From Nitrosopumilus sp. (lineage in GTDB: Archaea; Thermoproteota; Nitrososphaeria; Nitrososphaerales; Nitrosopumilaceae): a stretch of DNA of 64,000 nt. The stretch covers positions 1,312,001 through 1,376,000 of the forward strand of contig OZ245003.1 of the NCBI GenBank assembly GCA_965223425.1, written 5' to 3'. The position numbers were made by a program, and so were the translations under genes. The notes under the pieces were generated by a model, which ran no database searches, had not been told where the DNA came from, and saw only the letters and a list, made by a program, of their open reading frames with translations. Within the stretch, counting starts at the first letter, position 1; each line of letters begins with the position of its first letter. Shown one piece after another: positions 29,502 to 64,000 of this stretch.

Positions 29502-29617
29502 TGCACGTAACCTTTGATACTCCGCCCGCGGGGGGGGGGGACTCCAACTGCACCTTAAACGTCAGCATGGTCATGGCATGCACGTAACCTTTGATACTCC
29601 GCCCGCGGGGGGGGGGG
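29502..29617. repeat. Two 39-bp direct repeats each ending in G11
   Basis: TGCACGTAACCTTTGATACTCCGCCCGC(G)11 at 29502-29540 and 29579-29617; (TGT)n microsatellite at about 29453-29472. Confidence 0.9.
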
Positions 29618-44022: not shown

Positions 44023-44100
44023 GTACTATTGGTATCATTGTATCTAAAAATTGTTTCTTGGTGAACCTTTCTTCATACTGCACATTATGGTTATAATATT

Positions 44101-45298: not shown

Positions 45299-48200
45299 GT
45301 TTCAATCTTTGTTGTATTAGAATTTCTTTTAGACTCTATTTCGGCGGGGATTACACCTAACTCCTGTTGTTTCAATCTTTGTTGTATTAGAATTTCTTTT
45401 AGACAGACTAAAGACAATACCTATCAAGAAAAAAACAAAGTGTTTCAATCTTTGTTGTATTAGAATTTCTTTTAGACTGCCCACGTTGATGTGATGTGCC
45501 CTGTTACGGCTAGTTTCAATCTTTGTTGTATTAGAATTTCTTTTAGACCTAGGTATATGGAATTGTTACGAAAATATGATTCCTATGTTTCAATCTTTGT
45601 TGTATTAGAATTTCTTTTAGACTGAATAAGTAGAGTTTATATATTATCCTGAAAATAGTTTCAATCTTTGTTGTATTAGAATTTCTTTTAGACTCATTCA
45701 TACTCCATTGACTTCGTTCGCTTCCACTGTTTCAATCTTTGTTGTATTAGAATTTCTTTTAGACTGTGATAGTATCACAATCCTGACGATCTGTGATACG
45801 TTTCAATCTTTGTTGTATTAGAATTTCTTTTAGACTATGTTACGGTTCTTGCCTCGGTATCGCGCAGAAGTTTCAATCTTTGTTGTATTAGAATTTCTTT
45901 TAGACCGAAAAAATCCAAAATATGAGGGGACCCTATAATGTGTTTCAATCTTTGTTGTATTAGAATTTCTTTTAGACGGGAAGGTTACAGACAGACTAGA
46001 CAAATATTTGAAGTTTCAATCTTTGTTGTATTAGAATTTCTTTTAGACTTACCTTCAAGCTCAACACCTCAACACGCTTTTGTGAGTTTCAATCTTTGTT
46101 GTATTAGAATTTCTTTTAGACGGTGCTGTAGAGCTTATTCAGGAATGGAGTAACGAGTTTCAATCTTTGTTGTATTAGAATTTCTTTTAGACAGACTATT
46201 TTAGGTCAGTTTACAGCAAATGACATGTTTCAATCTTTGTTGTATTAGAATTTCTTTTAGACTTCTATCAAACACCGTTCCCTCTCTCTCAAGATTGTTT
46301 CAATCTTTGTTGTATTAGAATTTCTTTTAGACTATGCGAGGATTTATAACCTCGACCTTAATTATTAAGTTTCAATCTTTGTTGTATTAGAATTTCTTTT
46401 AGACTCAGTCATGGTTCAATATTGTAGACTTGATACTAGTTTCAATCTTTGTTGTATTAGAATTTCTTTTAGACCACACATTGCATATTAACCTTTCAAA
46501 CGATAACTGTTTCAATCTTTGTTGTATTAGAATTTCTTTTAGACAAAACCTATTTTGTAACTTTACATTTTAGGATATTTCGTTTCAATCTTTGTTGTAT
46601 TAGAATTTCTTTTAGACATAGTCGTAGACTATATTAAGTCAGCGGGGGGGGGGTGTTTCAATCTTTGTTGTATTAGAATTTCTTTTAGACAGTCAAGTAT
46701 CGTTGTCTCTGATGAATCAAGTGAAAGTTTCAATCTTTGTTGTATTAGAATTTCTTTTAGACTGCGTTGTTTGTTGGGTTTGGAGCAGCGCTTAGTTTGT
46801 TTCAATCTTTGTTGTATTAGAATTTCTTTTAGACATCATCTGAAATAAATTGAGTTCTATGACTGTGAATGTTTCAATCTTTGTTGTATTAGAATTTCTT
46901 TTAGACATAAAGGAACATCAGGAGATATACAACCAGAAAAAAGTTTCAATCTTTGTTGTATTAGAATTTCTTTTAGACGGAGGACAAGGAGGACGATCTT
47001 AACTCAGTCCTCCGGTTTCAATCTTTGTTGTATTAGAATTTCTTTTAGACTTTCTGAGAAGTATCTTAGCAGGGTCAGAAAGAAGTTTCAATCTTTGTTG
47101 TATTAGAATTTCTTTTAGACTATGATAGTGTGAACGAAAGAGTTACCAGAGTAAAGTTTCAATCTTTGTTGTATTAGAATTTCTTTTAGACCAAGTGTTC
47201 TGCCGGACTGTTCGTTGAACATGAGGTGTTTCAATCTTTGTTGTATTAGAATTTCTTTTAGACACATTATCAACGCCCCAACTGCCCAACACTACGTTCA
47301 GTTTCAATCTTTGTTGTATTAGAATTTCTTTTAGACCTGATATGCCGACAGAACATCCCTTGTGAATCCGTGTTTCAATCTTTGTTGTATTAGAATTTCT
47401 TTTAGACAAAATTCGGATCTGACAACAACAAACCGCTGTCATAGTTTCAATCTTTGTTGTATTAGAATTTCTTTTAGACTCTAAGGTTACCGTCTGTCTC
47501 ATCAAATCCCCAGTGTTTCAATCTTTGTTGTATTAGAATTTCTTTTAGACTGGCTCACGCCAGAGGCAATGACGTCATATCTGATGTTTCAATCTTTGTT
47601 GTATTAGAATTTCTTTTAGACTGATCAGTTTCCTTTTTAGTGTCTGGATGTCCCCATGTTTCAATCTTTGTTGTATTAGAATTTCTTTTAGACTAGAACC
47701 TATTTGCTAGACGTCATTGATGACGATATGTTTCAATCTTTGTTGTATTAGAATTTCTTTTAGACCCACCAGGAGGAGGTTTTGACGTAACGGGGCTATG
47801 TTTCAATCTTTGTTGTATTAGAATTTCTTTTAGACCAAAGGGGGGGGGATAGCCCGATTGTGGCGCTCTGTTTCAATCTTTGTTGTATTAGAATTTCTTT
47901 TAGACCGTCACCCGTGGCCGTCAGGATTGTATCTGTCTTGTTGGTTTCAATCTTTGTTGTATTAGAATTTCTTTTAGACAAAAAATCCAAGATGATCTAA
48001 TTTTGTCAAAGTTACGGTTTCAATCTTTGTTGTATTAGAATTTCTTTTAGACATCCAGTTCTAGTCTTAGCTGCTGTTTGTCATTGCGTTTCAATCTTTG
48101 TTGTATTAGAATTTCTTTTAGACTTACCTTTACAGTTACAATTTCATTGTCCAGTGAAAAGTTTCAATCTTTGTTGTATTAGAATTTCTTTTAGACATTC

Positions 48201-50540
48201 AGATGGGCAAGTCATGTCTGCAAATTATTCAAGGTTTCAATCTTTGTTGTATTAGAATTTCTTTTAGACTTTCCGCAATATGATCAATCAAACTGCCCGA
48301 TGTGGTTTCAATCTTTGTTGTATTAGAATTTCTTTTAGACTTACTGCGAGTGGTGTTGTACTTGCACCATTTAAGTTTCAATCTTTGTTGTATTAGAATT
48401 TCTTTTAGACCATGTCATACTATACCAAAACAGCCACTGCATATGTTTCAATCTTTGTTGTATTAGAATTTCTTTTAGACTACCGGATCTAAGTGAATGG
48501 TTCCATTGGTTGTTGTTTCAATCTTTGTTGTATTAGAATTTCTTTTAGACGGAATGACCATAAAATTAGACAATATTTCAGAGATGTTTCAATCTTTGTT
48601 GTATTAGAATTTCTTTTAGACATACAGAGTAGGCAGATTATAATGCCGATTGGAGGTTTCAATCTTTGTTGTATTAGAATTTCTTTTAGACGAAAAATTG
48701 ACCTGCTAATGGTTGACCCGCCGTAGTTTCAATCTTTGTTGTATTAGAATTTCTTTTAGACAAACTGGTTGTCAAAGACAAAACCGCTGCATATGAGTTT
48801 CAATCTTTGTTGTATTAGAATTTCTTTTAGACCTATAGAGTGCGTCTCTCTTAGCACTGATGCCCCGTTTCAATCTTTGTTGTATTAGAATTTCTTTTAG
48901 ACTGAAAGTAGTCAACTCCTGCGTTTGGTTCTGTACTCAGTTTCAATCTTTGTTGTATTAGAATTTCTTTTAGACTTCACACTTGGCGTCCCCTAACGTT
49001 TCATTTGTTTGTTTCAATCTTTGTTGTATTAGAATTTCTTTTAGACTTATTGCAACTATATAGAAACTGATCAGAGTTATTATGTTTCAATCTTTGTTGT
49101 ATTAGAATTTCTTTTAGACTCTCACTTCATAGATTTGTAAGTGCATGTATGACCTGTTTCAATCTTTGTTGTATTAGAATTTCTTTTAGACTCTCGATCG
49201 TCCTGATACACCCGTATACATGACAGTTTCAATCTTTGTTGTATTAGAATTTCTTTTAGACATAAAAGCCCAGAGAGCCAAAGCAATAACAGGCCTTGTT
49301 TCAATCTTTGTTGTATTAGAATTTCTTTTAGACTTCAGATCAGAGGACAGACAGGGATTCAGTTCTATGTTTCAATCTTTGTTGTATTAGAATTTCTTTT
49401 AGACGGATTATCATCAATTCTTGACCACTTGCTTGACTCGTGTTTCAATCTTTGTTGTATTAGAATTTCTTTTAGACTGAATAAATTGCCATTTTGATTC
49501 ACCCATTCTTCGTTTCAATCTTTGTTGTATTAGAATTTCTTTTAGACAGTACACCAGGTTGAAAACTGTTTACAGGTGAATAGTTTCAATCTTTGTTGTA
49601 TTAGAATTTCTTTTAGACTTGCTGATATGCTGTTAATATTTTGTGGGCAATCAGTTTCAATCTTTGTTGTATTAGAATTTCTTTTAGACTATCTCCAGCG
49701 AAATGATCAGGAGCGTGCAAAGTGTTTCAATCTTTGTTGTATTAGAATTTCTTTTAGACCATAGCAGGAGACAGCATCAGTTATCTATCCACAAGTTTCA
49801 ATCTTTGTTGTATTAGAATTTCTTTTAGACCAAAGAATTGACCTCTAGACATCCCAGCGATTACGTTTCAATCTTTGTTGTATTAGAATTTCTTTTAGAC
49901 ATGAAAAAGCCGGACGGATTGGACGGCTCGCCGGACGTTTCAATCTTTGTTGTATTAGAATTTCTTTTAGACTGACCTGATGTTAATTGATGTTAGACTG
50001 GTTAAGGTTTCAATCTTTGTTGTATTAGAATTTCTTTTAGACAGTCGACTGCATTGTAAAAAAAATAACGGAGTGTAAGTTTCAATCTTTGTTGTATTAG
50101 AATTTCTTTTAGACTCTTGCGGTGGGTCCAGCCGTTTTCGGACTCAAAAGTTTCAATCTTTGTTGTATTAGAATTTCTTTTAGACTGGTTCATGTTATCA
50201 GAATATCCACACACGTATAAGTTTCAATCTTTGTTGTATTAGAATTTCTTTTAGACCAAACGGATTTTTTCGCGTAGCGCCCAGTGATTTTAGTTTCAAT
50301 CTTTGTTGTATTAGAATTTCTTTTAGACCCAGCTATGATGGCTAAACTCACTCGCATCCAAAGTTTCAATCTTTGTTGTATTAGAATTTCTTTTAGACCA
50401 TAATATGTTCAGCCTCTCCGCGCATGCAACGTGAGTTTCAATCTTTGTTGTATTAGAATTTCTTTTAGACCATATCTTGTGGAGACTGACGTGCAAAGTG
50501 TGACGTTTCAATCTTTGTTGTATTAGAATTTCTTTTAGAC
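45299..50540 (-). CRISPR. CRISPR array, about 74 repeats of 36 bp and about 73 spacers of roughly 33-38 bp; leader-distal end truncated by IS
   Basis: Repeat (- strand) GTCTAAAAGAAATTCTAATACAACAAAGATTGAAAC with the ATTGAAAC handle; counted by eye. Confidence 0.98.
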
Positions 50541-50622
50541 AGTCCAATTTTTTGCCTCTTTTCCTTATTTGGAGTTAATTTTCTTCCGCATTTATTTGCT
50601 GAACCACCGTGTTTAAAAATTA
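50541..50622 (-). promoter_or_regulatory. CRISPR leader
   Basis: AT-rich non-coding stretch between cas4 and the first repeat, with a TTTTTAAA box on the - strand. Confidence 0.75.
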
Positions 50623-51207
50623 TTATTGACTATTTAATGAACCTATATCGCAGATTTTTCTATAACAGCAGTTTACACATCTTCGATCGTAATATGATTC
50701 TGGTGAAATTCCTGTGTTGATGATGTTCTTTGTCTCATGTAACATCCTGATCGCATAATCTTTAATGTCCTTATCTATATTCACATGTATTTTTACACGT
50801 TTATTGTTTTTTGTAAAGTATACGTATGCGTAATATACTGGTTTGTGCAAATTCTCTTCTAAAAGTACAGATAGAAGACCAAGCTGCACACGTAGGCTGT
50901 CATGTATCTTGCTGTAATTTGTATACTTTCGTTCAATTAGGACAATTTGATCTACTGTCTCTACCGCATGATCTACTATACCAACAAAGCCATGCTTTTT
51001 AGAGTATAGTTTTTGCGATGTAATCTTTGTACCTATCAGCCCCTCTGGAACAAAACTCTTGTTTGTTTTCTCCGATGTCCAATGATGTCTTTTGCCGGAC
51101 TGAACAGTGCCTCTCTTTTCTTCATATTGTTCTAATCCCATTACATGCCCATAGTACGTAAACTTTGGACAGAACACATTTTCAACTACTGTTGTGACTG
51201 ACATCAT
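50623..51207 (-). CDS. cas4: CRISPR-associated exonuclease Cas4
   Basis: FCPK, GIVD...IERK, CVNCCYRKIC. Confidence 0.93.
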   Translation of the reverse strand: MMSVTTVVENVFCPKFTYYGHVMGLEQYEEKRGTVQSGKRHHWTSEKTNKSFVPEGLIGTKITSQKLYSKKHGFVGIVDHAVETVDQIVLIERKYTNYSKIHDSLRVQLGLLSVLLEENLHKPVYYAYVYFTKNNKRVKIHVNIDKDIKDYAIRMLHETKNIINTGISPESYYDRRCVNCCYRKICDIGSLNSQ

Positions 51208-51210
51208 GGT

Positions 51211-51504
51211 CTAAAACACCATGGATGGCCTCTTTCCCTGTGCATATTGCGCATCAAAATCCCTGCCTACCGTGATCATCTTTCCAAAACATAGATTGCA
51301 GCTCATTATGAGATAAAACGAATCTGTCTCCTGATTTATTGCCTGTCTTATCTTCTCTATCATATCCTTTTTTTGCTGGTTTGAGATGTTGCCACAAAAC
51401 ACGCTTTTTTGTATTCTTATCAACCCTGCATCCTTGAGAACCTGAATCGTGGATTCGCGTGTGTTGTTGTCTGTTATATCATATGTGGCATAATACATAG
51501 TCAT
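51211..51504 (-). CDS. cas2: Cas2
   Basis: YDIT...RIQKSVF. Confidence 0.95.
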   Translation of the reverse strand: MTMYYATYDITDNNTRESTIQVLKDAGLIRIQKSVFCGNISNQQKKDMIEKIRQAINQETDSFYLIMSCNLCFGKMITVGRDFDAQYAQGKRPSMVF

Positions 51505-52496
51505 TGCACTGTGACATTCTCCGCAATTTTATCAACATCCAAAAGCTGATTTATGATGCTTCTACAATACTTCCATGTATTTACTTCCAACTGTTTTTGG
51601 CATACATCTCGGTATATTCGTATAAGCTCAAACCTTCCTTGCTTTGTTATCTCAACTCCTGGGAAGATGTCTTTTTTTATGTTATTGGAAAACCACATGT
51701 CCTTAACCATTCTCCTGCTAAACAAGTATACTAAAGACTTGTCTATTATTGGCCTACATGGCTCTATTAGATCGTATACGAGGGTAGGTTTAGCATAGCT
51801 GTCTTTGTGGTAGAATCCAGCTGTTGGGTCAAGTCCAGACAGTATCACTACCTTTTCAATGCTGGAATATGCCATGCCGTAGAGATAGTTCAGAGATGCA
51901 TTAAACGGATCAACCCCTGGATTTTGTGTTCTGCGCTCAAAGCGCCATTTTTTTGGAAGTGTAGCTGATATTATTTTAAAATATCTTGTAGCACAACTTC
52001 CTTCAAATCCTAGAAAATGTAGTGCAAAACTCCTATCATATGCAGTATCTTTTACAACATGTATGGTTTTGTTGAAAAATGACACAGCTTCTGCAATGTC
52101 TTTTGTCATCTCACTGGGCTCCCTGTTTTGTTTCAGCTCCGAAAGGAATCGCTTCTGTTTTGATAACTTTTCCAGTAAAAGTTTCTTTGTAATATCAAAT
52201 GCAAATAAAGTATCCAAGTTAAGGTACTGTTGTCTTCTTATCTGTGTCTGGCGTCCTGGGGAGCTGGCCCACATCCGCGCAAGCGGTTTGCCCGACTGTG
52301 AGGCCACTACTAACTGTATGTGTCTTTCTATACAAAGACGAATTGCAGCAGTGCTGATCATCGCGTTTGCAGTTATCAGTATGGCATCTACCATCTCTGC
52401 TGCTATTTCTTCATCATTCTGATCTGGTATTTTTATTATAAATCGTTCTCTCTTCCTGCGCAAGCTTGCCCCATGGGTGGTAATATCAATTATCAT
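51501..52496 (-). CDS. cas1: Cas1
   Basis: GFEG, DPFNASLNYLY, GLDP..GFYH, LVYDLIEP. Confidence 0.96.
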   Translation of the reverse strand: MIIDITTHGASLRRKRERFIIKIPDQNDEEIAAEMVDAILITANAMISTAAIRLCIERHIQLVVASQSGKPLARMWASSPGRQTQIRRQQYLNLDTLFAFDITKKLLLEKLSKQKRFLSELKQNREPSEMTKDIAEAVSFFNKTIHVVKDTAYDRSFALHFLGFEGSCATRYFKIISATLPKKWRFERRTQNPGVDPFNASLNYLYGMAYSSIEKVVILSGLDPTAGFYHKDSYAKPTLVYDLIEPCRPIIDKSLVYLFSRRMVKDMWFSNNIKKDIFPGVEITKQGRFELIRIYRDVCQKQLEVNTWKYCRSIINQLLDVDKIAENVTVQ

Positions 52497-52825
52497 CTAC
52501 TTTCTGTATTATGCCAAACCCCTTTGATACACTTTTCCCTATGCCGATGTATTTTGGTAGCGACAGATTTGTCACAAACTTAGCATAAAACCCTGAAAAC
52601 CTATGTTTGTGTACAATAACTGGTGCCTTTTTGTACCATTTTATCTGAACATACAGATGGTAGTCTATTTTGATTCCTATGCCCTTTAACATACTTAGCA
52701 AGTTTCCGATAAGCATCTCCTCCAAAAACCTTCTCCTAAACTGTGGGTCAATATTCTTGAATTTTACATAATTTTCTGCATTTAGCGCAATCCATGGAGA
52801 TTTAAATGAATATTGTGTTATTTTT
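52486..52825 (-). pseudogene. cas6: C-terminal half of a second Cas6
   Basis: SPWIALNAENY...GIGKSVSKGFG, colinear with the last about 110 aa of 58364-59020; homology stops near 52825. Confidence 0.8.
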
Positions 52826-52862
52826 ATAAAACTAATATAATACTCAGATCCTATTTTTTCAC

Positions 52863-54536
52863 ATGTTAGCCTATACAATCTTTGATGAAAATAATAGTAC
52901 GGGTTTGGAGCCTGGAAATGGAATACCAATTAAAAAAATATTTGTAAAAAACAACACCATTATAATTGATGATAAAACAATTGAACAATATGGAGTAAAA
53001 ACACTCCCACAATCTACAGTTGGGAGTCTGATGGTAAAGCAGTTTAATATGCCACTTGATACAGAACCATCTCTTAATCTGCCAAACAAAAAAGTTGCAT
53101 CAAACTCACCAAAACCATATGTAGTAATTCCAGGATACATAAAGATATTTAAAAAGAAAGACCAAATCACAGGAGAAATCACGTTAGGTAATAAAAAAAA
53201 GGATTATTTTGCAAAATTAAGCATTCCTGATTTTGAGCAAGAAATTATCTCTTCTGATATTAATTTTAAAATTGATTCTCAAAGATATTTTATGAATAAT
53301 GAAACACTGTATGATGTTTACTACAAACATAAAATACTTGAAGACAGCAAGTTAAAATCCACACTATTTGAAAAAGTTGTAATCAAGTTTTTTGATTACA
53401 TTAAAGAAAAAAATCTAGAATTCCCTCAAATCAAAACAAGTTTTTCATTATACATTTTACCAAGTGATGATCCAATTATTTTTACTTCTCAGGAAATCCA
53501 AAAGCAATCATTGAACAAGATGGATGCCTTTGGAAATAATCTAGAATATTATCCAAAAAAGCCAACAACAGGCTTGTTTTTTTGTTCATATGATGATAAG
53601 GCATTTACTATAAACTGTACTGAAAAAGACAAATTTTATGAAACTTTGGGAATAGGAAATATATCTCATAAAAAATTATCATTACCAAACAGCAAAAAAA
53701 TAACCATATATCCCTTTGATTGGTATTTTATTAATTTGGAGAATTCTGCAAAAATATTTACAAAACGGAATCAGGGTATATATGACCAACTATATCATAA
53801 TTATTTAGATTTAAAAAAAGAGTACAGTCTTACAGATACTCTCGCATCCCTTATGGTCTTTTGCATAAATAAGAATAATGCAAAACTCGAAGTCATATTA
53901 AATGAAAATCTGACAATGGTAAAAATGGAGTCATTATTGGGGGATGTACAACTAAAAAATATTCCTCCCTTTGCATTAGAACTGTTGATAGTTAAAAAAG
54001 GCTCCAAGTCATTTTTCAGATATTATGTGATGGCAATCAAATCACTACTAAATGAAATACCAGTTAACAGAGATTTACTAATTAAGATATTTACATCTAA
54101 AATCCGTGACGAAATTCGAGAATGGGTGAAGGGAAAATCAGACACGAACGCAAATTATTTTTTCAAGCGATCAGAGTTTTGTCTAATAACTTTAAATTCA
54201 TCATATGTCTCGGATACTACATTGAAGGAAGAAGAAGATTTTGCAAAGTCAGTAGGAGAAATTACAAGACAGTACATTTCATTTAGAATGACTAATAATC
54301 ACGATAATAATTCACTACGTGAAATTTTATCAAAACCAAAATATGATATTCAAACATTACAGTATGTGATAAAGCAGATAGGTAGAGGCATACATCTTCT
54401 TAACATTAAATCAGAAATGTATAATCGTATATTAAATAGGATTTCTGATATCACTCCAGAAATAGTCGATTCTGATTCAAGAAAAGACTTTTCTTATCAC
54501 TTTTACATGGGATATTTCAAAGGAGTTAAAAAATGA
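52863..54536 (+). CDS. cas8b: Type I-B large subunit (Cas8b-like)
   Basis: Size and position before cas7; C-terminal FYMGYF; little direct motif evidence. Confidence 0.7.
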   Translation: MLAYTIFDENNSTGLEPGNGIPIKKIFVKNNTIIIDDKTIEQYGVKTLPQSTVGSLMVKQFNMPLDTEPSLNLPNKKVASNSPKPYVVIPGYIKIFKKKDQITGEITLGNKKKDYFAKLSIPDFEQEIISSDINFKIDSQRYFMNNETLYDVYYKHKILEDSKLKSTLFEKVVIKFFDYIKEKNLEFPQIKTSFSLYILPSDDPIIFTSQEIQKQSLNKMDAFGNNLEYYPKKPTTGLFFCSYDDKAFTINCTEKDKFYETLGIGNISHKKLSLPNSKKITIYPFDWYFINLENSAKIFTKRNQGIYDQLYHNYLDLKKEYSLTDTLASLMVFCINKNNAKLEVILNENLTMVKMESLLGDVQLKNIPPFALELLIVKKGSKSFFRYYVMAIKSLLNEIPVNRDLLIKIFTSKIRDEIREWVKGKSDTNANYFFKRSEFCLITLNSSYVSDTTLKEEEDFAKSVGEITRQYISFRMTNNHDNNSLREILSKPKYDIQTLQYVIKQIGRGIHLLNIKSEMYNRILNRISDITPEIVDSDSRKDFSYHFYMGYFKGVKK

Positions 54537-55492
54537 CAAAGTCTGAAATTTTATTCTATTATGAATCACGTCAGAATCCTAATGGTGATCCTGATTCTGA
54601 AAACCAACCAAGATTAATGCATGATGAGACTATAATGGTAACTGATGTAAGAATAAAACGAACCATCAGAGATTATGCAAAACAAAAGTTCGGTTATAAA
54701 TTATTTGTAGATTATAATGAAAAAGGAGATCCAGTAACTGCGGACTCTCGAGCAAAAGAGATTGCAGAACAAGCACAGGATAAAGGAGGTGATTTTATTA
54801 AAATCATGTTAGAGAATACTTTTGATGTTCCTCTTTTTGGAGCTTTAGTTACAATCAAGGGAAAGTCAAAGAAAAACTCCGATGACTCTGATGTAGAGGC
54901 GGGTTCCCAAAAACTTACAGGACCTGTCCAATTTGCAATAGGAAAAAGTGTAAACAAAGTAAATCTCATCCAGCCTACTATCACATCAAGGTTTGTTGGA
55001 AAAGAAAAAGAAGGACAAGCAAAACAGTTCAGCACAATTGGAAAATTCTACGCAGTTGAATATGCATTAATTAAGACATGTGGTGCTATCAACCCATCAA
55101 ATCTAGGTAAGTATTTGCAGTATGATGTTATTCAAGATAACTTTACAAAATACTGCAATGAATTTCCAGAGATTTTGTTTGATGGGACAAATCAGTTAAT
55201 CACTAGATCAAAGTATCCACAAAGAAGCATATTGTTTATTCAGGTAGATTACAATGATACAATTTACAATGATTTATCTAGTTTAGTAGCAGAAAGTGAA
55301 ATCTTAAAAAATGATACGACATTCCCAACTGAGCTAAATAAAACACCATTTGACTTTACAGATCTTATCTCAACGTTGAACTCTCGTAAAGATAAGATTG
55401 AGAAAATAAAAATAAAGTTTGCAGACGATATTAGCAAAGATGTATCTGATATGATATCCAAACTAGATGGTATTACAGTTGAACAGTTGTAA
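54533..55492 (+). CDS. cas7: Cas7 (Csh2-type)
   Basis: NPNGDP..NQPR, VTDVRIKRTIRDY, TGPVQF. Confidence 0.93.
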   Translation: MTKSEILFYYESRQNPNGDPDSENQPRLMHDETIMVTDVRIKRTIRDYAKQKFGYKLFVDYNEKGDPVTADSRAKEIAEQAQDKGGDFIKIMLENTFDVPLFGALVTIKGKSKKNSDDSDVEAGSQKLTGPVQFAIGKSVNKVNLIQPTITSRFVGKEKEGQAKQFSTIGKFYAVEYALIKTCGAINPSNLGKYLQYDVIQDNFTKYCNEFPEILFDGTNQLITRSKYPQRSILFIQVDYNDTIYNDLSSLVAESEILKNDTTFPTELNKTPFDFTDLISTLNSRKDKIEKIKIKFADDISKDVSDMISKLDGITVEQL

Positions 55493-56235
55493 TGACTAGG
55501 ATCATATCATTTGAAGTTACTGGAAATTATGCGTCATTTAGAGATCCTTCAGTCACCACTAACCAGGTAATATACTATATTCCATCAAAGAGTGCAATTG
55601 TTGGATTAGTTGGTGCAATAATCGGAGTCAAGCGTGGCAATACACTTGATGAATTATACAGTAAAGAGTATCTAGAGTTTTTCTCAAAGATCAAAGTGGG
55701 AATAAAACTATGTAACAATCCCAAAAAAATCATTTATTTTACAAATCATCGCTCATTAAAATCCCCCAAGACAAAGCCAGTAAAAAAAGAGATATTGGAG
55801 AATCCAAAATATGTAATATATCTTCAAGCCGAAGATAATATCCTAGATAAAATTACAACAGTGATAAAAAACAACAAATATGAGTTTACCCCATATTTGG
55901 GGCATGCCTACTGCATTGCTAGAATCTCTAATTTACAACAATATGTTGGTAAATTATTGGCAAACGTTTCTAATCGCATAACAGATTGTATTGTATTAGA
56001 TGAATCTAGTTCTAATAATAATACAAGTTTTATATTCAAAGTAAAAACCAAAGACAATTCAAAAATAATTATTGAAAGGCATCTGCATCATTTTTTTGAG
56101 AAATCCGGTTTTACTAAATGTGTCTTAAAACACTGGATACCTTTTGACTCCTCAGAAATGAAGATACAATCATTAAGGGAAAACAAATTATCCAACTTTT
56201 ATGAAATCAACGAAAAAGTGTACTGTTTGTATTGA
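55492..56235 (+). CDS. cas5: Cas5
   Basis: GNYASFR...PSKSAIVGLVGAIIG, PYLG. Confidence 0.93.
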   Translation: MTRIISFEVTGNYASFRDPSVTTNQVIYYIPSKSAIVGLVGAIIGVKRGNTLDELYSKEYLEFFSKIKVGIKLCNNPKKIIYFTNHRSLKSPKTKPVKKEILENPKYVIYLQAEDNILDKITTVIKNNKYEFTPYLGHAYCIARISNLQQYVGKLLANVSNRITDCIVLDESSSNNNTSFIFKVKTKDNSKIIIERHLHHFFEKSGFTKCVLKHWIPFDSSEMKIQSLRENKLSNFYEINEKVYCLY

Positions 56236-58373
56236 ATTTTCTATCACATAATACTGATGGCAAAGAACATTTGGATTTTCATCTAGTTTATGTTGCTCAG
56301 AGAGCTAAAAAAATAGTAGACACGAGTAGCTTTACTTCGTCTAATGCCGCATATTATGCAGGGCTGTTTCATGATCTAGGAAAACTAAACCCATACTACC
56401 AGAAACTTTTTTCAGGAGAAGATAAAAATGAATTACTAAAATCATATCACGGTTACCATTCCTATTACTCTTGTTGGCTTGCAGAATCTTTTCTGGACGC
56501 AAACTACACCTTATCAGATGAGGATAAAGTAAGAGTAATTATGTTAATTGCAGGACATCATACAAAATTACGAAAAGAACCTACAAACTACATAGGAAAA
56601 GACAATGAAAAAAAGAATAAAACTGCAAGATATATTCTTGATAACTTGGAGAAATTCATCAGACAGACAACAAAAGAGCAGTTAAAGGAATTACCAGAGA
56701 TTAATCCATCAATAGATTATACACGATATGAGGAAAAATTAGAAACCAAACCAAATGAAGACAGTATAGAGGCATTTTTGGAATGTGGATTTTTGTTTTC
56801 ATCACTTTTACAGGCAGACAGGGGTAGTTTTTCTGACTTTGAGGAAAAAAAACTTGATTCTTCTTTTATATTTAATACTGAAAATCTAGTAAAGAAGGGT
56901 AACAAACTGTCTGATTTTAGATCATCATTACAAAATACAGTTTTAAAAAGTACTGATGTTACAAAACCAATCTTTGTACTAAATGCCCCTACAGGCTGTG
57001 GGAAGACAAAGGCGTTTTTGGATGTAATCAAAAAATACAATCCAAAACGGATTTTTTATTTTTCACCACTCTTGGCATTAACTGATGATATTGCAAAAAA
57101 GATAGATGATACATGCAAAAACAACCCAGACACAAAAAAACAGATACTCGTATTCAACAATACATTCACAAACAGCTTGAATGAAAAAATTCCAGAAAAC
57201 GGAGATGATATTCAAAATATGCCAGAAAAATGGAACTTTGATTTTGAGGCATTTAATGAAAAGATGGTAATTGCAACAACTCAGAGATTATTAATGACAA
57301 TATACTCAAATTCTCACAAGGACAAACTAAAGCTTGCATCCCTTAGAGACTCTTTGCTCATTATAGATGAAGTCCAAACGCTGCCAAAAGTTTTACTAAA
57401 AAACCTCATATCAATACTAAATGCAATGAACAAATATCTTAACACAAGGACATTGCTAGTCAGTGCAACAATTCCTTTTGAGTTATCAGATCTACCAAAG
57501 ATAGGGCTTGATAAAAATCAGACACGTCAGTATCTTATGGAGAGAAATTATGATATACTAAAAGAAAACTTTGATGTGAAGAAAATACAGACAGGCAAGA
57601 CCTTGATCATGCTAAATACAAGAAAAAATGCAAAGGAGACATTTGAGCAGATAGAGCACAAAAATTTATTTTACATATCATCTGGCATCAAAAAAGAACA
57701 TAGGGAAAAAATATTATTAGATATTAACGAATCACCTGACTCTATTCTGGTATCCACCCAAGTAGTTGAGGCTGGAGTTGATATTAGTTTTAATAGTATA
57801 TGGAGGCAGATGGCGCCAGTTGACAATATAATTCAGGTTATGGGAAGACTAGACAGAGAATCTCAAGATAGAAATGCCAAACTACATATTTTTGATTCAG
57901 ATGTGGCAAACTTTGCTCCCTATTCTGCATTAGAGTTTGAAGAATCTAAAAAAATCATTTCCAGAGTCTCAAACAGTATGGAATTATATGCCGAGCTGGA
58001 AGAATATTATAAAAAAATCTCTACTGAAAACCTTCAACAAAAAAACCAAGAAGAGACTCTTCAATGTCATATGGATAAATTGGATTTTGATGAAATATGG
58101 GGTTTCGTAAAACCATTCATTGGAGAGTCCTACTATGACTCTGTGTACATACCAAGTTATGATACATGGGATGAAGTTAAAGTGGAATTATTATCAAAAG
58201 AAAAACTTGCCATAAAAAAACATGCAGGGTTGATAGCTCAGCTTCCGGTAAAAAGATACAAAATAGAGCATATGTTTGATGAGCAACTTTTGGAGAAAAA
58301 TATTCTCTATCCAAAAAAAGAACATTTAGATGAGATATATGACAAACATTTGGGGTTGGACATATGGAGATAG
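56232..58373 (+). CDS. cas3: Cas3 HD nuclease-helicase
   Basis: FHDLGK, GHH, QAD, APTGCGKT, DEVQ, SAT, TQVVEAGVD, GRLDR. Confidence 0.96.
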   Translation: MNFLSHNTDGKEHLDFHLVYVAQRAKKIVDTSSFTSSNAAYYAGLFHDLGKLNPYYQKLFSGEDKNELLKSYHGYHSYYSCWLAESFLDANYTLSDEDKVRVIMLIAGHHTKLRKEPTNYIGKDNEKKNKTARYILDNLEKFIRQTTKEQLKELPEINPSIDYTRYEEKLETKPNEDSIEAFLECGFLFSSLLQADRGSFSDFEEKKLDSSFIFNTENLVKKGNKLSDFRSSLQNTVLKSTDVTKPIFVLNAPTGCGKTKAFLDVIKKYNPKRIFYFSPLLALTDDIAKKIDDTCKNNPDTKKQILVFNNTFTNSLNEKIPENGDDIQNMPEKWNFDFEAFNEKMVIATTQRLLMTIYSNSHKDKLKLASLRDSLLIIDEVQTLPKVLLKNLISILNAMNKYLNTRTLLVSATIPFELSDLPKIGLDKNQTRQYLMERNYDILKENFDVKKIQTGKTLIMLNTRKNAKETFEQIEHKNLFYISSGIKKEHREKILLDINESPDSILVSTQVVEAGVDISFNSIWRQMAPVDNIIQVMGRLDRESQDRNAKLHIFDSDVANFAPYSALEFEESKKIISRVSNSMELYAELEEYYKKISTENLQQKNQEETLQCHMDKLDFDEIWGFVKPFIGESYYDSVYIPSYDTWDEVKVELLSKEKLAIKKHAGLIAQLPVKRYKIEHMFDEQLLEKNILYPKKEHLDEIYDKHLGLDIWR

Positions 58374-59020
58374 ATATACCCCTATGTTATTCTGAGATAG
58401 TTCTACATGAAAAAAGACGTCTCTCTGCAACACAGCTAAGATCATTTATCGGATACAAGTTCATAGAGAATACAGAGTTTCATCACCATGATGATAATCC
58501 TTACAGATATCCATTAATCCAATACAAAAGAATAAATGATTCCCTCTACATTTTAGGAATTGCCAAATATGCTGATCTTGTATTTGATAGAGTTTCAGAA
58601 CTGCAGCACATTACGCTGAAGAACACTGACTTGTCAATATCAAATATTGTATTTGAGAAAACCACACATACAGTTACCGAAAAAATCTACAAGTATCGTT
58701 TTATTAGTCCTTGGATTGCACTTAATGCAGAAAATTATGTAAAATACAATAATCTGGATTTAACATTTCATAAAAAATTTTTAGAAAATATATTGACTGG
58801 AAATTTACTTAGTATGTTAAAAGGGCTTGATATTAGAATAGATTATACCTTATACGTTGAGCTCAAATGGTTCAAACATTTACCAATAACTGCCCACAAA
58901 CATGGCTTTTCAGGATTTTATGCAGAGTTTATAACTAATTTATCATTACCAAAATATATTGGAATTGGAAAAAGTGTTTCAAAGGGCTTTGGTGTAATAC
59001 AAAGAATGAAAACTAGCTGA
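58364..59020 (+). CDS. cas6: Cas6 (Cas6b-type) endoribonuclease
   Basis: YRYPLIQYK, SPWIALN, GIGKSVSKGFG glycine loop. Confidence 0.93.
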   Translation: MEIDIPLCYSEIVLHEKRRLSATQLRSFIGYKFIENTEFHHHDDNPYRYPLIQYKRINDSLYILGIAKYADLVFDRVSELQHITLKNTDLSISNIVFEKTTHTVTEKIYKYRFISPWIALNAENYVKYNNLDLTFHKKFLENILTGNLLSMLKGLDIRIDYTLYVELKWFKHLPITAHKHGFSGFYAEFITNLSLPKYIGIGKSVSKGFGVIQRMKTS

Positions 59021-59058
59021 ATCTATTATATACTTGAAATTATTGAGATATTATCATG

Positions 59059-59104
59059 TTCTACTAAAACAAAGATTGAAACGTTTGTTATTTCACTGCA
59101 AAGT
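59059..59104 (+). ncRNA. Putative CRISPR-like regulatory RNA: degenerate repeat + spacer, cut by an IS
   Basis: 59059-59082 matches the last 24 nt of the array repeat at 22/24 and keeps ATTGAAAC; TATTATATA box at about 59024-59032; spacer matches 60218-60236. Confidence 0.75.
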
Positions 59105-60172
59105 AGACCCTATCCGTTATTAACATAATTTTACCATTTTTCAGATATTTGTTCTCAACTAGATCCAAAACAGGCAAAATGCCATGCATGTCATGTTAAA
59201 CCACAAAAAGCTGGCAAAAAAACCAAAATTATTCCTGTCCATGACGGGAGTTACCCCCGGGCAGTTTTATGATCTGTGCCCGGAGATAGAGTCACAGTAC
59301 AAGATAACGGAGGAAAGACGCCTCTCCAGGAATAACAGAATCCGAGACATCGGCGCAGGGCGCAGGTTCAAACACTGCCGCAGGGACAGAATCCTGATGG
59401 CACTGATCCACTACAGGACATACGTCACACAGGGTCTCCTGAGCCTGCTTTTTGACCTGAGCCAGTCAAATGTCAGTACCGGCATACGATACATGGAGCC
59501 TGCCATAAAATCTGCACTGTCACTGCCTGACAAAAAGCTTGCAGAGACCAGACAGATATCAGACATTCGGGAGCTGGCATGCGCCTTTCCTGGGCTGCAC
59601 GCAGTCATTGACGCATCAGAGCAGCAGATTCAAAGGCCCAAGAACAAGTCCAGGAGAAAGACACACTATTCGGGCAAAAAGAAGATGCATACGGTCAAGA
59701 CACAGTACGTTGTAAACGCAGACGGCATGATTATGCACAGGACGCCGCACTCGCCTGGAAGCAGGCATGACTATTCTGTCTTCAAGTCAAAGTGCCCAAA
59801 ACTTTCAGGAGATCTGAAAATCCTTGTGGATCTTGGATATCAGGGGATACGGAAGGACTATCCGGAGCTTGACGTGTTGATCCCGTACAAGAAGCCAAGG
59901 GGCGGCAAGCTTGATGATGCGCAGAAGGAATTCAACCGGGAGCTGTCCAGAGCAAGGGTACCGGTGAGCATGTCATCTCAAGGATCAAGAAATTCGGCAT
60001 AATGAGGGACAAGTTTAGGAACAGACTGTGCAGGTATGACTGCATCAATGCCATAATCTGCGGCCTGATCAACTACAAGCTGAAGACGCGCGATTTTGTT
60101 GTGATACCATGACGTAACAAGGAATCAGTTTGGTGAAACGTCAGGTTTTGTTAGTAATTACAGATCAGGTCT
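59105..60172 (+). mobile_element. IS5-family (ISL2-like) element; transposase 59184-60002 frameshifted before the catalytic Glu
   Basis: Ends AGACCCTATC / GATCAGGTCT; AGT duplication at 59102-59104 and 60173-60175. Confidence 0.93.
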
Positions 60173-60214
60173 AGTATACGCTCAAGTAATTCCTATTATA
60201 ATAAGGAAATAATG

Positions 60215-60260
60215 TTAGTTTGATATTTAACTGCAATAGAATTTTGATCAATTATAAATA
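60215..60260 (+). promoter_or_regulatory. TTA PAM + crRNA-like target site followed by the TATA box of the small-ORF operon
   Basis: TTA-GTTTGATATTTAACTGCAA (60215-60236); TTATAAAT at 60252-60259; ATG at 60281. Confidence 0.7.
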
Positions 60261-60280
60261 ATTTAAAATCAACCACATAC

Positions 60281-60439
60281 ATGAAAAATATTACTTATAT
60301 CCCAATAATAGTTTTCACAGAAGAGCAATTGTTAGAACAAAAACGATTACAAAGAGAATTGAAGATATGTTATGAGAAGAATATATCATCAAGTTTTAAC
60401 ATACATTATTATTTGGAATTAAAGGAGGAATATTTCTAA
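60281..60439 (+). CDS. 52-aa hypothetical protein, absent from ORF track
   Basis: MKNITYIPIIVFTEEQLLEQKRLQRELKICYEKNISSSFNIHYYLELKEEYF; TAATG overlap with the next ORF. Confidence 0.55.
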   Translation: MKNITYIPIIVFTEEQLLEQKRLQRELKICYEKNISSSFNIHYYLELKEEYF

Positions 60440-60663
60440 TGCCTGTTTTTGAATTTCGTTTGACTTGTGTGAATGAAAATTTATGTAAAGAAACTCAACT
60501 TGTAATGTCAGATTTTAAAAACAAAAATGTAAAGGGAGATAAAAGTTATGATCATGTTGCACTAAAAACATTCTCAAGTTGGGAAGATGCCATCAAGGTA
60601 TCCGCCGAGATTGAGAGGAAACTTGGTAAAAATTTGGTTGATTTGACAATCGCCGAGAAATAA
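60439..60663 (+). CDS. 74-aa hypothetical protein
   Basis: ORF track; AAGGAGG upstream; translationally coupled. Confidence 0.65.
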   Translation: MPVFEFRLTCVNENLCKETQLVMSDFKNKNVKGDKSYDHVALKTFSSWEDAIKVSAEIERKLGKNLVDLTIAEK

Positions 60664-60664
60664 T

Positions 60665-61013
60665 TTGAAAAAATTACAAATCATTGTTAAAGAAGGAATA
60701 TCAAATCGTACTTTAGATAATATTGTTATTGATCTTTCACAAATAACAGGTGTAGACATAAAAGAAAAAACCTAGACTTCTTTCAGTAGGTATTGATAAA
60801 TTCTATATTTGGCAAAATGTGTTATTAGATATTAGTTCAACAACCATAGTGGAACTTAAAAGGGAATTAAAGAAAACTTTGAATGCTTCTATTGAAGAGA
60901 TGCCCACTACATGGTGGGGACGAAATGGGGAAAAAGCATTTGTGACAATGGGGTTGGCAAGTGTAGCTGGATTTGTAGTTGGAATGTTATCTTGGGTCAC
61001 TCACCCCCCTTAG
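60665..61013 (+). pseudogene. About 115-aa C-terminally membrane-anchored protein, frameshifted in an A6 run
   Basis: TTG 60665; removing one A at 60765-60770 joins MKKLQIIV...DIKEK to PRLLSVG...AFVTMGLASVAGFVVGMLSWVTHPP. Confidence 0.55.
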
Positions 61014-61036
61014 AATTTTGAATTAATGTAATCCGT

Positions 61037-61170
61037 TTATATTTCTATTAATTGCAATTCTACATTTTCCTTAGGTGTCCTATTACCTAATGCACTATGT
61101 TGTTTAATATTATTGTGAAATAATTGATAGCTTATCATTATGACCCAATCTTGTATTTGTTTGCAGGCTT
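61037..61170 (-). pseudogene. C-terminal relic of an integrase-core DDE transposase
   Basis: YQLFHNNIKQHSALGNRTPKE resembles the YNxxRPHxALxxxTP motif. Confidence 0.5.
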
Positions 61171-61355
61171 TACGCAGATGTCGTTGCAAACAGTTAGATG
61201 TGTTTTCAGGCAGAGACTGTCTCAGGCTACTTGCGTGGGAGAGAGAACCTGCCATCTTCTGCACCTGATAGCACAACCGGTTTGATGTAGACGCACCAGC
61301 TTTGATTCCTTTTGCAAGACGTGATATCATAAAAAAAACCGTGTGTCGCGCCGTG

Positions 61356-62945
61356 CTATTCTATAATGCCGTGGAAGAGATCGTATTTTCTTCCGTACTC
61401 TGTCTCCTCACCGCACTCGCACAGCATTGCCAGAAACTCCCCCGCGTCTCTAGAGATTGATGAGTATAGCGTAGTGTAGAAGTAATGCGTTCGTCTGCCG
61501 CATTTGCCGCACTGCCAAATATCTGTCAGCACATCGTCTTTGCGTTTCTTGTATTCCCGTTCTCCTGGCAGTGCGTCAGGCTCAAAGAAGCTGTCTGTGA
61601 TCGGACTTGAGTAGGCACCGCCTTTGATTGTATCCCCTGATTCCTTGCCAAACCACCATCCTGGGATAACGTTGCTGCATTTTGGGCAGCTTCCGAGGCA
61701 TTCAATATTCCAACCTCCAAAGATCTTAGATAGCATATTTCTATCTGTGATCTGTTCTAGCGCAACAAGCTCTTCCCCATATCCTGAGATGCTGTTAGCT
61801 ACGGTGTCTTCTTCCATTATGTATGGCAGCCACACTGTATCTGCGTGGTGAAACGTATTTTCACACAGGTGGCATTTTACATCATGGTGTTTGGGCGGGT
61901 TCATCATGAATTCAATGATATTCTCATCTGCAATCTCGTTTCCTTGCCGCAACATTTTTTTAAAATATGCTGCCTTGCGGTAGTCTGGATTTATTTTCAG
62001 CACCCTGTCCAAGCATTCTGCCGCATTGTCATAGATTTCCAGATTCAGCAACGATATGCCCTTGTTGTGAATTGCCGTGTCATAGTCTGGCCTAATCTTA
62101 ATTGCTTTATCAAAGTTTTCTATTGCCAACTCATGCATCTTCATGATGCTCAGCGCACGGCCCTTGTTGGAAAAAACGGCGGGGTTGTTTGGATTTATTT
62201 TCAGCGACCTGTCAAAACATTCCATGGATTTTTTGTATTTGCCAAGGAATGCATATGCTGCCCCCATGCTACTAAGCGTGGTAATGACTAGGTTCGTCCA
62301 TGAGAAATTATAAGTAACCTTGCTTTCTGGCGCAATTCCCTTCAGATCCATATCCATTGGAGAGCTGGGCATGTCGCTTAGCGCCATCTCAAAATACTTT
62401 AGAGCCCTTTTGTAACTTCTATTGTCCATCAAAGAGATTCCCTTCACGTGGTTTTGTCTGTGCTTTCTGCAAGCTGCCTGCTGGTCGTACAGTGCTCTTT
62501 TTGTCGATTCGAGTTCCTCTGGCGAAAAGTTGCTGCACGTTCCCTGGCCATCAAGGTGCACTGTGCTCTCTTCGACAAAAAAACCCACAATGGCCCCTGA
62601 GTACAAAAGTTCACACGTGTGGCCGCTGAGGGGTTTAAAGCGGTGCTTTACATGCTCTGTGTACCTGCCGTGGATCCACTTTAAGACCGGGTCGTCTATT
62701 AGCAGGCTTTGCATGCTCGTCCACAACCGCGCACCAAGTACTGTCTGGTGCTCTTCCTGCGTGTGCCTTAATGATGCCTCTGGAAACCTATCCTGCATCT
62801 CTTCTGGTACCTCTAGTGCCATGAGGCATTTGCGATAGGTGTTGTCTGGCATCTCTGGCCTTATGGCAAAGGTGAATTCTATGCCGATGGCTTTTGGCTG
62901 CCTGTTGCTGTTGGCCTTGTTTTTTTGCTCCCTAAAAGTCCTCAA
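61356..62945 (-). CDS. TPR-repeat protein with C-terminal CxxC motifs; start uncertain
   Basis: About 4 TPRs (MGAAY..LGKY, NKGRAL, NKGISL); CHLC, CPKC, CGKC, CEC. Confidence 0.8.
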   Translation of the reverse strand: MRTFREQKNKANSNRQPKAIGIEFTFAIRPEMPDNTYRKCLMALEVPEEMQDRFPEASLRHTQEEHQTVLGARLWTSMQSLLIDDPVLKWIHGRYTEHVKHRFKPLSGHTCELLYSGAIVGFFVEESTVHLDGQGTCSNFSPEELESTKRALYDQQAACRKHRQNHVKGISLMDNRSYKRALKYFEMALSDMPSSPMDMDLKGIAPESKVTYNFSWTNLVITTLSSMGAAYAFLGKYKKSMECFDRSLKINPNNPAVFSNKGRALSIMKMHELAIENFDKAIKIRPDYDTAIHNKGISLLNLEIYDNAAECLDRVLKINPDYRKAAYFKKMLRQGNEIADENIIEFMMNPPKHHDVKCHLCENTFHHADTVWLPYIMEEDTVANSISGYGEELVALEQITDRNMLSKIFGGWNIECLGSCPKCSNVIPGWWFGKESGDTIKGGAYSSPITDSFFEPDALPGEREYKKRKDDVLTDIWQCGKCGRRTHYFYTTLYSSISRDAGEFLAMLCECGEETEYGRKYDLFHGIIE

Positions 62946-63083: not shown

Positions 63084-64000
63084 AGGCCTCTTGCGCAACT
63101 AACATAGTTTGATCACAACCTCAACGTTACTGCACAGCAAGATCCAAAGCTAACCTTTCATTACTCCATTTTATGCTAAATCATAAAAAACCAGCAAAAA
63201 AAAACACGAGAGCGTTCCAATCATTTGCGGGAATTGCTCTACAACAGCTTGACTTCTTATCCAAGGCAAACCAAAAAGAACTAGCAGCAACAGAAAGAAA
63301 AGATCATCAAAAGAAAAGACAGCGAAACATTGGAGATGAGTGAAAATTTAACCCGTCCATTAATGATAGATTGGCAGTGTTGCTATTCCGTTGCAGAATG
63401 CACACCACACGTGAATTTGCAGGATATCGCTTCAATTTAGATCAGGGTGATATGCATAGAAACATCAAATATTTGGAGCCTGCAGTAAGAAAATCAACTC
63501 CCATCCCCTCCAAACTGTATGCAGATTCAAAAAAGATCTACAGTATACAACAGTAGCAGCAGCAGCAAGGATTCTTCCCTGGCCTAACTGCAGTGACTGA
63601 CGGCACTGAGCAGCAAATCCCAACACCAAAAGACAAGCGCAAAAGAAAATCGCACTGCCCGGGCAAAAAGAAAAGCGTGCAATCAAACATCAGACCACAG
63701 TCAATGGCATCGGAGGCACAGTCCACAAACTGCCGCATTCTCCTGGATGAAGAAATGATTGTGCAACATGCAAAATAAAACACCCGGTATTATCCGAAGA
63801 GCTGATGCGCTTTTATGGTCCTGATATCTGGGCGTGGAAAAGGACTTTGAAGACCGGATCAGCATTTTACCATACAAGAAAAAAAGGAAGAGAGACAATC
63901 CCACACCAAAAGGAATGGAACAGGACTCAATCCAGAACCCGAACCAGGGTGGAGGCACGCAATCAGTAAAACAAAAAAATTCAGAATTAATTGCGACAAA
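63084..64000 (+). mobile_element. Degenerate IS5-family (ISL2-like) element running off the window
   Basis: End AGGCCTCTTGCGCAACT after an ACT flank; fragments homologous to 19035-20105 (YLEPAV, TDGTEQ). Confidence 0.85.

Follow-up and report, generated by a model that had tools for sequence, protein, structure and literature searches.

The CRISPR-Cas Locus and Its Rearranged End

The stretch of DNA analyzed here, referred to as the window, comprises 64,000 nucleotides (nt) of Nitrosopumilus sp. (contig OZ245003.1, positions 1,312,001 to 1,376,000 of the forward strand) and contains a type I-B CRISPR-Cas locus organized in two divergent halves. Our subject is the end of the effector half, where the last gene, cas6, is followed by a lone truncated repeat, a 19-nt sequence resembling a guide, an insertion sequence (IS), and an operon of three small open reading frames (ORFs) whose upstream region carries a near-copy of that guide (Table 1). 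In all relatives examined, namely G150, G149, L012 (from the G071 genome), and L013 (from the G166 genome), the genes are colinear in the order cas8b-7-5-3-6-1-2-4-array and cas6 leads straight into cas1, hence the junction at which the effector operon ends here is derived and rearranged. A search of genome contigs with Cas6 returned two canonical loci, and a Cas6 relative was present in 1 of the 36 same-genus genomes sampled.

Table 1. Features of the CRISPR-Cas locus and the adjoining operon (window coordinates; aa, amino acids; PAM, protospacer adjacent motif).
Feature	Position	Strand	Remarks
CRISPR array	45299..50540	-	74 repeats of 36 nt, all identical; 73 spacers, 34-38 nt long
cas4, cas2, cas1 and C-terminal cas6 fragment	50623..52929	-	divergent from cas8b
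Effector operon cas8b-cas7-cas5-cas3-cas6	52863..59020	+	all ORFs open; PADLOC Cas8b1 1.4e-181, Cas7b, Cas5b, Cas3b; Pfam Cas6b_N, Cas6b_C
Linker	59021..59058	+	TATA-like TTATATAC at 59026-59033
Lone truncated repeat (psiR1)	59059..59082	+	last 24 nt of repeat; 22/24 to resident repeat, 24/24 to G150 repeat
Guide	59083..59101	+	GTTTGTTATTTCACTGCAA, 19 nt; 17/19 to target, mismatches at 6 and 12
IS	59105..60172	+	DDE_Tnp_4/HTH_Tnp_4 transposase; 3 nt past matched part of guide
Operon upstream element	60182..60217	+	palindrome TTCCT..AGGAA; also in G169 module
Candidate PAM and target	60215..60236	+	TTA at 60215-60217; target GTTTGATATTTAACTGCAA at 60218-60236, 18/19 in G169
Predicted TATA box	60253..60260	+	TTATAAAT, ~25 nt before ORF1 ATG (60281)
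ORF1	60281..60439	+	52 aa; 47-aa protein-level relative adjoining ORF2 in G169 (L073); frame broken in G169 L067
ORF2	60439..60663	+	74 aa; small conserved family, invariant C10, C16, D38, H39, ferredoxin-like fold
ORF3	60665..61013	+	frameshifted: 36 aa (60665-60775) and open stretch 60762-61013, break in A-run 60765-60770

The Lone Repeat

The lone repeat lies on the cas6 strand and starts 38 nt past the cas6 stop codon (59018-59020), with its 8-nt handle ATTGAAAC intact at 59075-59082 and a TATA-like box upstream in the linker, as an earlier note on this DNA had described it. Outside the array it is the only 22/24 site in the 2.64-Mb genome. When the full 36 nt are compared with the resident repeat the agreement falls to 25/36, the first 12 nt being unrelated. 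Its complete identity over 24 nt to the repeat of G150, a relative of the same genus, indicates that it represents the intact 3' part of a living variant and not a decayed copy. The lone repeat is predicted to be unstructured, and the sole Rfam match in 58900-61400 was CRISPR-DR7 at 59050-59082, which is below threshold (22.2 vs. 37 bits). Within the linker, 59030-59042 matches the first cas1 codons of G149 at 12 of 13 positions in a local alignment, at the site where cas1 starts in relatives, and this is a weak hint that the lone repeat may have been created by a deletion reaching from the cas1 start to mid-repeat.

Lone near-perfect repeats far from arrays are also found in two other genomes, at L061 (G149:C1:1362547-1362586) and L025 (G164:C1 near 1261564-1261624). 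We define a seeded match as one that runs from position 1 of the guide with every sixth base left free. Neither of these two repeats has a nearby seeded match above 8, and as a control this counts in favor of a guide at the locus under study.

Guide and Target

Position 1 of the match is the first base after the handle; guide and target share one strand, and the letters before the target are TTA. The earlier note had reported agreement at 17 of 19 positions, with mismatches at exactly 6 and 12 and a TTA flank, and all of this is present. Only one of the 171 ways of placing two random mismatches among 19 positions puts them on 6 and 12. Genome-wide, the longest seeded match is 19 for the guide and no more than 16 for any of the other 72 array spacers, leaving aside spacer 3 with its full self-target. 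No other target of the guide was found in the genome, the best seeded match within the cas locus (50500-59082) or downstream of it being 8. Once the IS and one copy of its target duplication are removed, the guide and target start only 64 nt apart. An ordinary array remnant was considered and rejected, given the single 5'-truncated repeat and a spacer with a 19-nt seeded target at that distance.

It could be argued that the two 19-mers are a local direct repeat unrelated to CRISPR, either a protein-binding site or a duplication of the upstream region of the operon, lying next to a repeat fragment by coincidence. This genome is rich in local repeats: when 3000 random 19-mers were tested, 81 matched at 17/19 or better within 2 kb on either side. 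In addition, the target sits in a conserved cis-element shared with the relative G169, in which no Cas7 was found and where a stretch at the same upstream distance resembles the guide at 13 of 19 positions (by eye). However, the copy is on the correct strand and begins precisely with the base that follows the handle, its mismatches fall on 6 and 12, global alignment gives no homology to G169 upstream of about 60182, and a 24/24 repeat part beside cas6 cannot be chance. Moreover, the similarity between guide and target ends abruptly past position 19, and the lone repeat is unrelated to the upstream flank of the target, which is not the pattern left by a decayed tandem duplication. We regard such a direct repeat as very unlikely. 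The core observation is real and non-random, and it largely confirms what had first been noticed.

The Predicted Operon Promoter and Its Conserved Upstream Element

The target ends 16 nt before TTATAAAT, close to the distance of about 15 given before, and stands just ahead of the TATA box of the operon as had been claimed. The promoter is a predicted one, its spacing from the ORF1 start codon being that of a leaderless archaeal gene.

A homologous module occurs on the minus strand in G169 (L067) and consists of the palindrome, the target (18/19), an ORF1 with a broken frame, an ORF2 that is 80% identical in aa sequence, and a likewise broken ORF3, with the TATA-like CATAAATA at the same distance as here. 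It has neither the repeat part nor the guide, and no Cas7 homolog was found in that genome. Homology between the two loci begins at about 60182 in a global alignment, with none upstream, and the palindrome and target form the best conserved non-coding part (about 50/55 by eye, compared with about 65% nearer the TATA box). The conservation of the target in G169 identifies it as an old cis-element, with the guide as the derived partner. The same comparison argues against the second degenerate repeat that the earlier note had placed at 60179-60214. Among 29506 AT-rich 36-mers, 78 attain its agreement of 20/36, which is not significant with offsets allowed, and since homology to the repeat-less and guide-less G169 module starts at about 60182, this stretch is part of the conserved upstream element of the operon itself. 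The corresponding stretch upstream in G169 was also inspected by eye as a possible decayed repeat and dismissed as not significant.

The Arrangement in Related Strains

The IS within the guide is flanked by an AGT target duplication (59102-59104 and 60173-60175), and four further full-length copies elsewhere in the genome have 3-bp duplications of other sequence. Contigs of four sequencing runs were aligned to the window. One of them (X5; 10,078 nt) covers 58000-59098 with 51 differences (about 95% identity), a segment that includes cas6, psiR1, and guide positions 1-16; it then carries 23 other letters and resumes at 60190 (about 84% identity) through ORF1 and ORF2, with no IS and no indel in the palindrome or target. 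The arrangement from cas6 through the lone repeat and guide to the operon is kept, free of the IS, in a second strain. In the protein collection searched, 8 proteins make up the Cas6 cluster at 90% identity or more, and contigs of 22,613 and 111,346 nt each appear, judging from equal contig sizes, to encode a Cas6 of at least 90% identity together with ORF2 and ORF3 homologs. A search of metagenome contigs with Cas6 and an ORF3 homolog returned nothing. Sponge metagenomes are among the runs listed as containing small shares of the cas stretch, and no RNA run is among those listed for this DNA.

A Candidate CreA-Like Guide

On balance, we favor, as slightly more probable than not, the interpretation that a CreA-like guide lets Cascade repress the promoter of the adjacent operon. 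Transcription from the TATA-like box at 59026-59033, or read-through from cas6, would yield an RNA containing the last 24 nt of the repeat, and a Cas6 cut 8 nt before the repeat end would leave the ATTGAAAC handle joined to the guide. Loaded into I-B Cascade, and provided that TTA is accepted as a PAM, the guide would pair with the minus strand at 60218-60236 through positions 1-5, 7-11, and 13-19, the mismatches being confined to sixth positions that would be flipped out. With only about half a spacer length paired, Cascade should bind without Cas3 cutting. A complex sized for a CRISPR RNA (crRNA) of 34-38 nt would span 60215 to about 60252, the edge of the predicted transcription factor B recognition element (BRE)/TATA box of the ORF1-ORF2-ORF3 operon, and its footprint would hinder transcription initiation. 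Every frame of the Cascade genes and of cas6 is open and full length according to the ORF list and PADLOC, which counts in favor of this mechanism. The original interpretation stands in part, as the guide and its seeded, same-strand, promoter-side match fit a non-cleaving Cascade guide, while the second repeat, the TTN-type PAM, and the toxin role that it also invoked find no support.

Repression by partial guides has been described in several type I systems. CrePA of Acinetobacter baylyi (type I-F) consists of a CRISPR-repressed protein toxin and a CreA guide, which in its mature form has an 8-nt handle followed by 25 nt, and the first 19 nt of psiS, save for the 12th, correspond to a target that has a PAM beside it and lies just upstream of the -35 box (10.1101/2024.01.05.574328). 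The present locus resembles the CrePA described there in having a guide gene upstream of, and co-directional with, protein-coding cargo in the cas locus, in the agreement of the first 19 nt of the guide except at sixth-multiple positions, in a target just upstream of a core promoter element, and in a guide with the 5' handle alone and a shortened spacer part. It differs in being a type I-B system of an archaeal host, known here from its sequence, with a single 5'-truncated repeat and a three-gene cargo operon that has no KilAC domain. Homologs of the cargo are found at a distance from cas genes as well, in contrast to CreP, for which 49 of 50 homologs are reported in I-F loci (10.1101/2024.01.05.574328).

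The haloarchaeal CreTA system (PMC8501985; PMC9458426) shares the I-B subtype with our locus, as well as a degenerate repeat that keeps its 8-nt handle, a seed that skips position 6 (CreA positions 1-5 and 7-11), and a target in the cargo promoter (PMC8501985). A one-repeat form is described for Haloarcula hispanica (PMC8501985). However, CreT as described is a very small toxic RNA acting by sequestration of a rare tRNA, unlike the protein genes found here; the CreA match is about 11 nt rather than 19; and CreTA lies between cas genes, whereas the present guide comes after the final cas gene, where the rearranged locus ends. According to Shmakov et al., regulatory mini-arrays and standalone repeats aimed at cas8 or cargo genes are widespread (PMC10120712), and CreR is presented as a Cas-autorepressing guide (bioRxiv 10.1101/2023.03.10.532045). 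As in those reports, a standalone repeat in a type I locus here precedes a spacer that is partly complementary, from the seed onward, to a promoter region, and cargo is among the targets they describe. Most of the guides in these accounts repress cas8 or cas6 promoters, which sets them apart from ours. CreR-type autoregulation was tried as an explanation and rejected, as the 8 nt mentioned above are the best that the guide attains in the cas locus and the cas8/cas6 promoter is not matched.

Taken together, the lone repeat lies beside a type I cas operon, retains its handle and the predicted Cas6 site, and is followed by a seeded partial match to a target abutting a predicted cargo promoter, all of which are features of CreA-type guides; a second degenerate repeat, which is common but not universal in CreTA and CrePA, lacks support. 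The earlier note knew of no such module in Thaumarchaeota. CreTA, CrePA, and cargo-aimed mini-arrays are already published; our literature search found none reported for Thaumarchaeota or Nitrosopumilus, and the main text of PMC10120712, whose supplements may list such loci, has no occurrence of Thaumarchaeo* or Nitroso*. The locus is probably a new archaeal case of the known use of CRISPR as a repressor. It differs from known systems in the combination of subtype and host, in a single truncated repeat that apparently arose by deletion, and in a cargo not confined to cas loci.

Evidence Against Repression, and a Possible Relic

Several findings weigh against a repressor at work today, and they concern the PAM, the state of the locus, and the distribution of the operon. 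A TTN-type PAM had been expected from protospacers of the array spacers, and these provided TAT and TAA only. Spacer 3 (window 50328-50361, approximate) is the only one with an exact protospacer: all 34 of its 34 positions agree with a host gene that encodes a small membrane protein (G000:C1:198216-198249; conserved in G069, 29/34), with a TAT flank, compared with TTA at the operon target. Spacer 15 matches G143 at 27/34 with a TAA flank. Searches for further protospacers gave no real hits in INPHARED (this array and the arrays of two relatives), 0 hits in IMG/VR for five of five spacers tried, and none beyond spacers 3 and 15 in 151 genus and 401 family genomes. Among 35 short hits in genus genomes with flanks inspected, only those of spacer 3 (29/34) and spacer 15 (27/34) are real, and the 22 hit groups from the genus and family genomes all overlap repeats. 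Overlapping spacers in the arrays of relatives have inconsistent flanks (GAA, TCA, AAC, TTT, TTG, and TGC). The tolerance of a perfect self-target suggests that interference, and perhaps the whole system, may be impaired, or alternatively that the PAM is non-permissive. Furthermore, the target lies upstream of the TATA box without overlapping it, so any blockage rests on the footprint of the unpaired part of Cascade, and the second repeat has been lost from the argument.

The main rival is that the lone repeat and guide are an inactive relic, which we consider possible, though less than probable. A deletion from the cas1 start to mid-repeat would have left the tail of an old array, whose last spacer, acquired from the DNA next to it or from a mobile copy of the module, lost its 3' half through rearrangement, making the pairing historical with no regulation today. 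The linker match to the first cas1 codons of G149 and the direct succession of cas6 and cas1 in relatives both fit this history, and the latter also counts against repression. The same can be said of the present condition of the locus, with an IS 3 nt past the match interrupting the guide, a frameshift in ORF3, and another IS cutting the main array; the module may be decaying. A relic would further be consistent with the tolerated self-targeting spacer and with the multi-copy, seemingly mobile nature of the ORF2 family. A third strain, represented by the X12 contig, has a cas6 about 95% identical and diverges directly past it, and among the 151 genus genomes the exact guide/target pattern occurs twice in this genome and, in the other 150, only as the target alone in G169. 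On the other hand, neutral decay should scatter mismatches, and both fall on two non-pairing positions; the 24 nt of the lone repeat are unchanged compared with a living repeat variant; and guide positions 1-16 can be aligned from one strain to the other, unlike the sequence 3' of the guide. A self-targeting origin has also been proposed in the literature for regulatory guides, and such an origin is compatible with a present function.

The Operon and Its Gene Family

The operon had been described as three coupled genes of 52, 74, and about 115 aa. ORF1 and ORF2 are indeed coupled, through a TAATG overlap, but the third gene is not one frame here. Intact ORF3 homologs elsewhere have 114-119 aa, and a contig of a further run (X3) has no indel at the site of the frameshift. 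Members of the ORF2 family were found in 7 genomes of the 151 from the genus, as many as five copies per genome, and in 11 clusters of a large protein collection. The ORF2 model (pLDDT, predicted local distance difference test, 87) has a ferredoxin-like fold with generic PDB neighbors only (best E-value 2e-3; Foldseek). The model of an intact ORF3 homolog (P0012; pLDDT 70) combines a ferredoxin-like domain with a C-terminal membrane helix, and Foldseek gave it no PDB match at an E-value of 0.001 or better. Pfam, PHROGs, PADLOC, and the ESM Atlas returned nothing for the three ORFs.

This genome carries an ORF2 paralog of 97% nt identity (G000:C1:1421878-1422095, L072; also L077), which lacks ORF1, the ORF1 start codon region being fused to ORF2. 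It is flanked by a repeated element of ~40 nt (GGTTCCGTG...ATGGATCTTCTC-like), a third copy of which follows about 700 nt on, and these repeats may mark a cassette or a carrier similar to a miniature inverted-repeat transposable element (MITE) for the gene family. Such mobility would suit a further alternative, namely that the guide is an ordinary immunity spacer against a mobile element carrying the operon, the neighboring copy being an integrated element that escaped cleavage. The scattered ORF2 copies and the repeats around the paralog fit this, and thaumarchaeal I-B spacers are known to match integrated elements, according to PMC6563490. Yet from position 20 on the guide agrees with neither of the two modules, this one or that of G169, no fuller match exists in any of the 151 genomes, and the adjacency of guide and target would be a coincidence. 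We therefore judge an immunity spacer very unlikely.

With respect to function, a toxin or addiction role had been put forward, and the evidence does not support it. There is no toxin-like family or fold among the operon proteins, ORF3 is frameshifted, and the module is present in genomes without a detected Cas7: ORF2 occurs in 6 other genomes, five of which were searched for Cas7 without a hit, G169 with its intact ORF1-ORF2 pair among them. This speaks against an obligatory toxicity of those two proteins and counts, too, against the proposed repression. An addiction or toxin function is a weaker further inference than repression, and an unlikely one.

Surroundings of the Locus

The leader of the array is on the cas4 side. 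Its distal end is cut, 9 nt past the last repeat, by a diverged copy of the same IS as at 59105 (97%; about 44096-45289, minus strand), which contains a ~120-nt insert with inverted-repeat borders (about 44975-45085) and is flanked by AGT and AAT. This copy and the IS at 59105 bracket the whole CRISPR-cas locus in inverted orientation to each other. An inversion between the two as the origin of the adjacency of guide and operon was considered and set aside as indistinguishable, as both left flanks end in AGT.

The cas6 fragment of the adaptation half (window 52486-52929, minus strand) encodes 147 aa, 70% identical to the full cas6 product and 73% to Cas6 of G150; it is joined to cas1 and overlaps the cas8b start on the opposite strand. 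The adaptation half is closer to G150 and the effector half closer to L012/L013, and the two look as if two I-B loci had recombined. Runs of 9-11 G or C occur in two spacers (46640-46655 and, approximately, 47870-47900) and in a 39-nt stretch that is duplicated (29502-29617); they may be genuine or an artifact of homopolymer assembly. On the 3' side of the operon, a short integrase/transposase-like fragment (61037-61330, minus strand) and a second, related IS present as a degenerate copy (63173-64000) enclose a 529-aa tetratricopeptide repeat (TPR) protein (61356-62945, minus strand), placing the CRISPR locus in an IS-rich patch. Elsewhere, in G151, a mini-array of five repeats whose 5' parts are degenerate adjoins cas4 (L024, minus strand 1397-1751), and its spacers 1 and 2 share their first 13 nt before they diverge.

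Implications

The most far-reaching possibility is that, in a marine archaeon that oxidizes ammonia, the stump of a deleted array became a one-repeat guide with which I-B Cascade holds down a mobile three-gene cassette acting as an addiction or anti-anti-CRISPR module. As a whole this is unlikely. The cassette would comprise two proteins modeled as ferredoxin-like, one of them apparently tail-anchored in the membrane, and a 52-aa peptide. Should it be true, no earlier CRISPR-repressed addiction or anti-anti-CRISPR module with protein cargo would be known from Archaea or Nitrososphaeria, and the ORF3 frameshift here and the breakage in G169 would be scars of toxin inactivation as repression weakened.

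If the locus proves to be only a relic, it would still record a spacer of self origin at an intermediate stage on the way from immunity to regulation. If repression is confirmed, CRISPR-guided control of non-cas cargo would extend to the Nitrososphaeria, in which CRISPR is rare and for which, to our knowledge, no genetics exist. It would also provide cargo with a testable phenotype and a natural example of how such guides originate, through a deletion fusing the end of an effector operon to the middle of a repeat.

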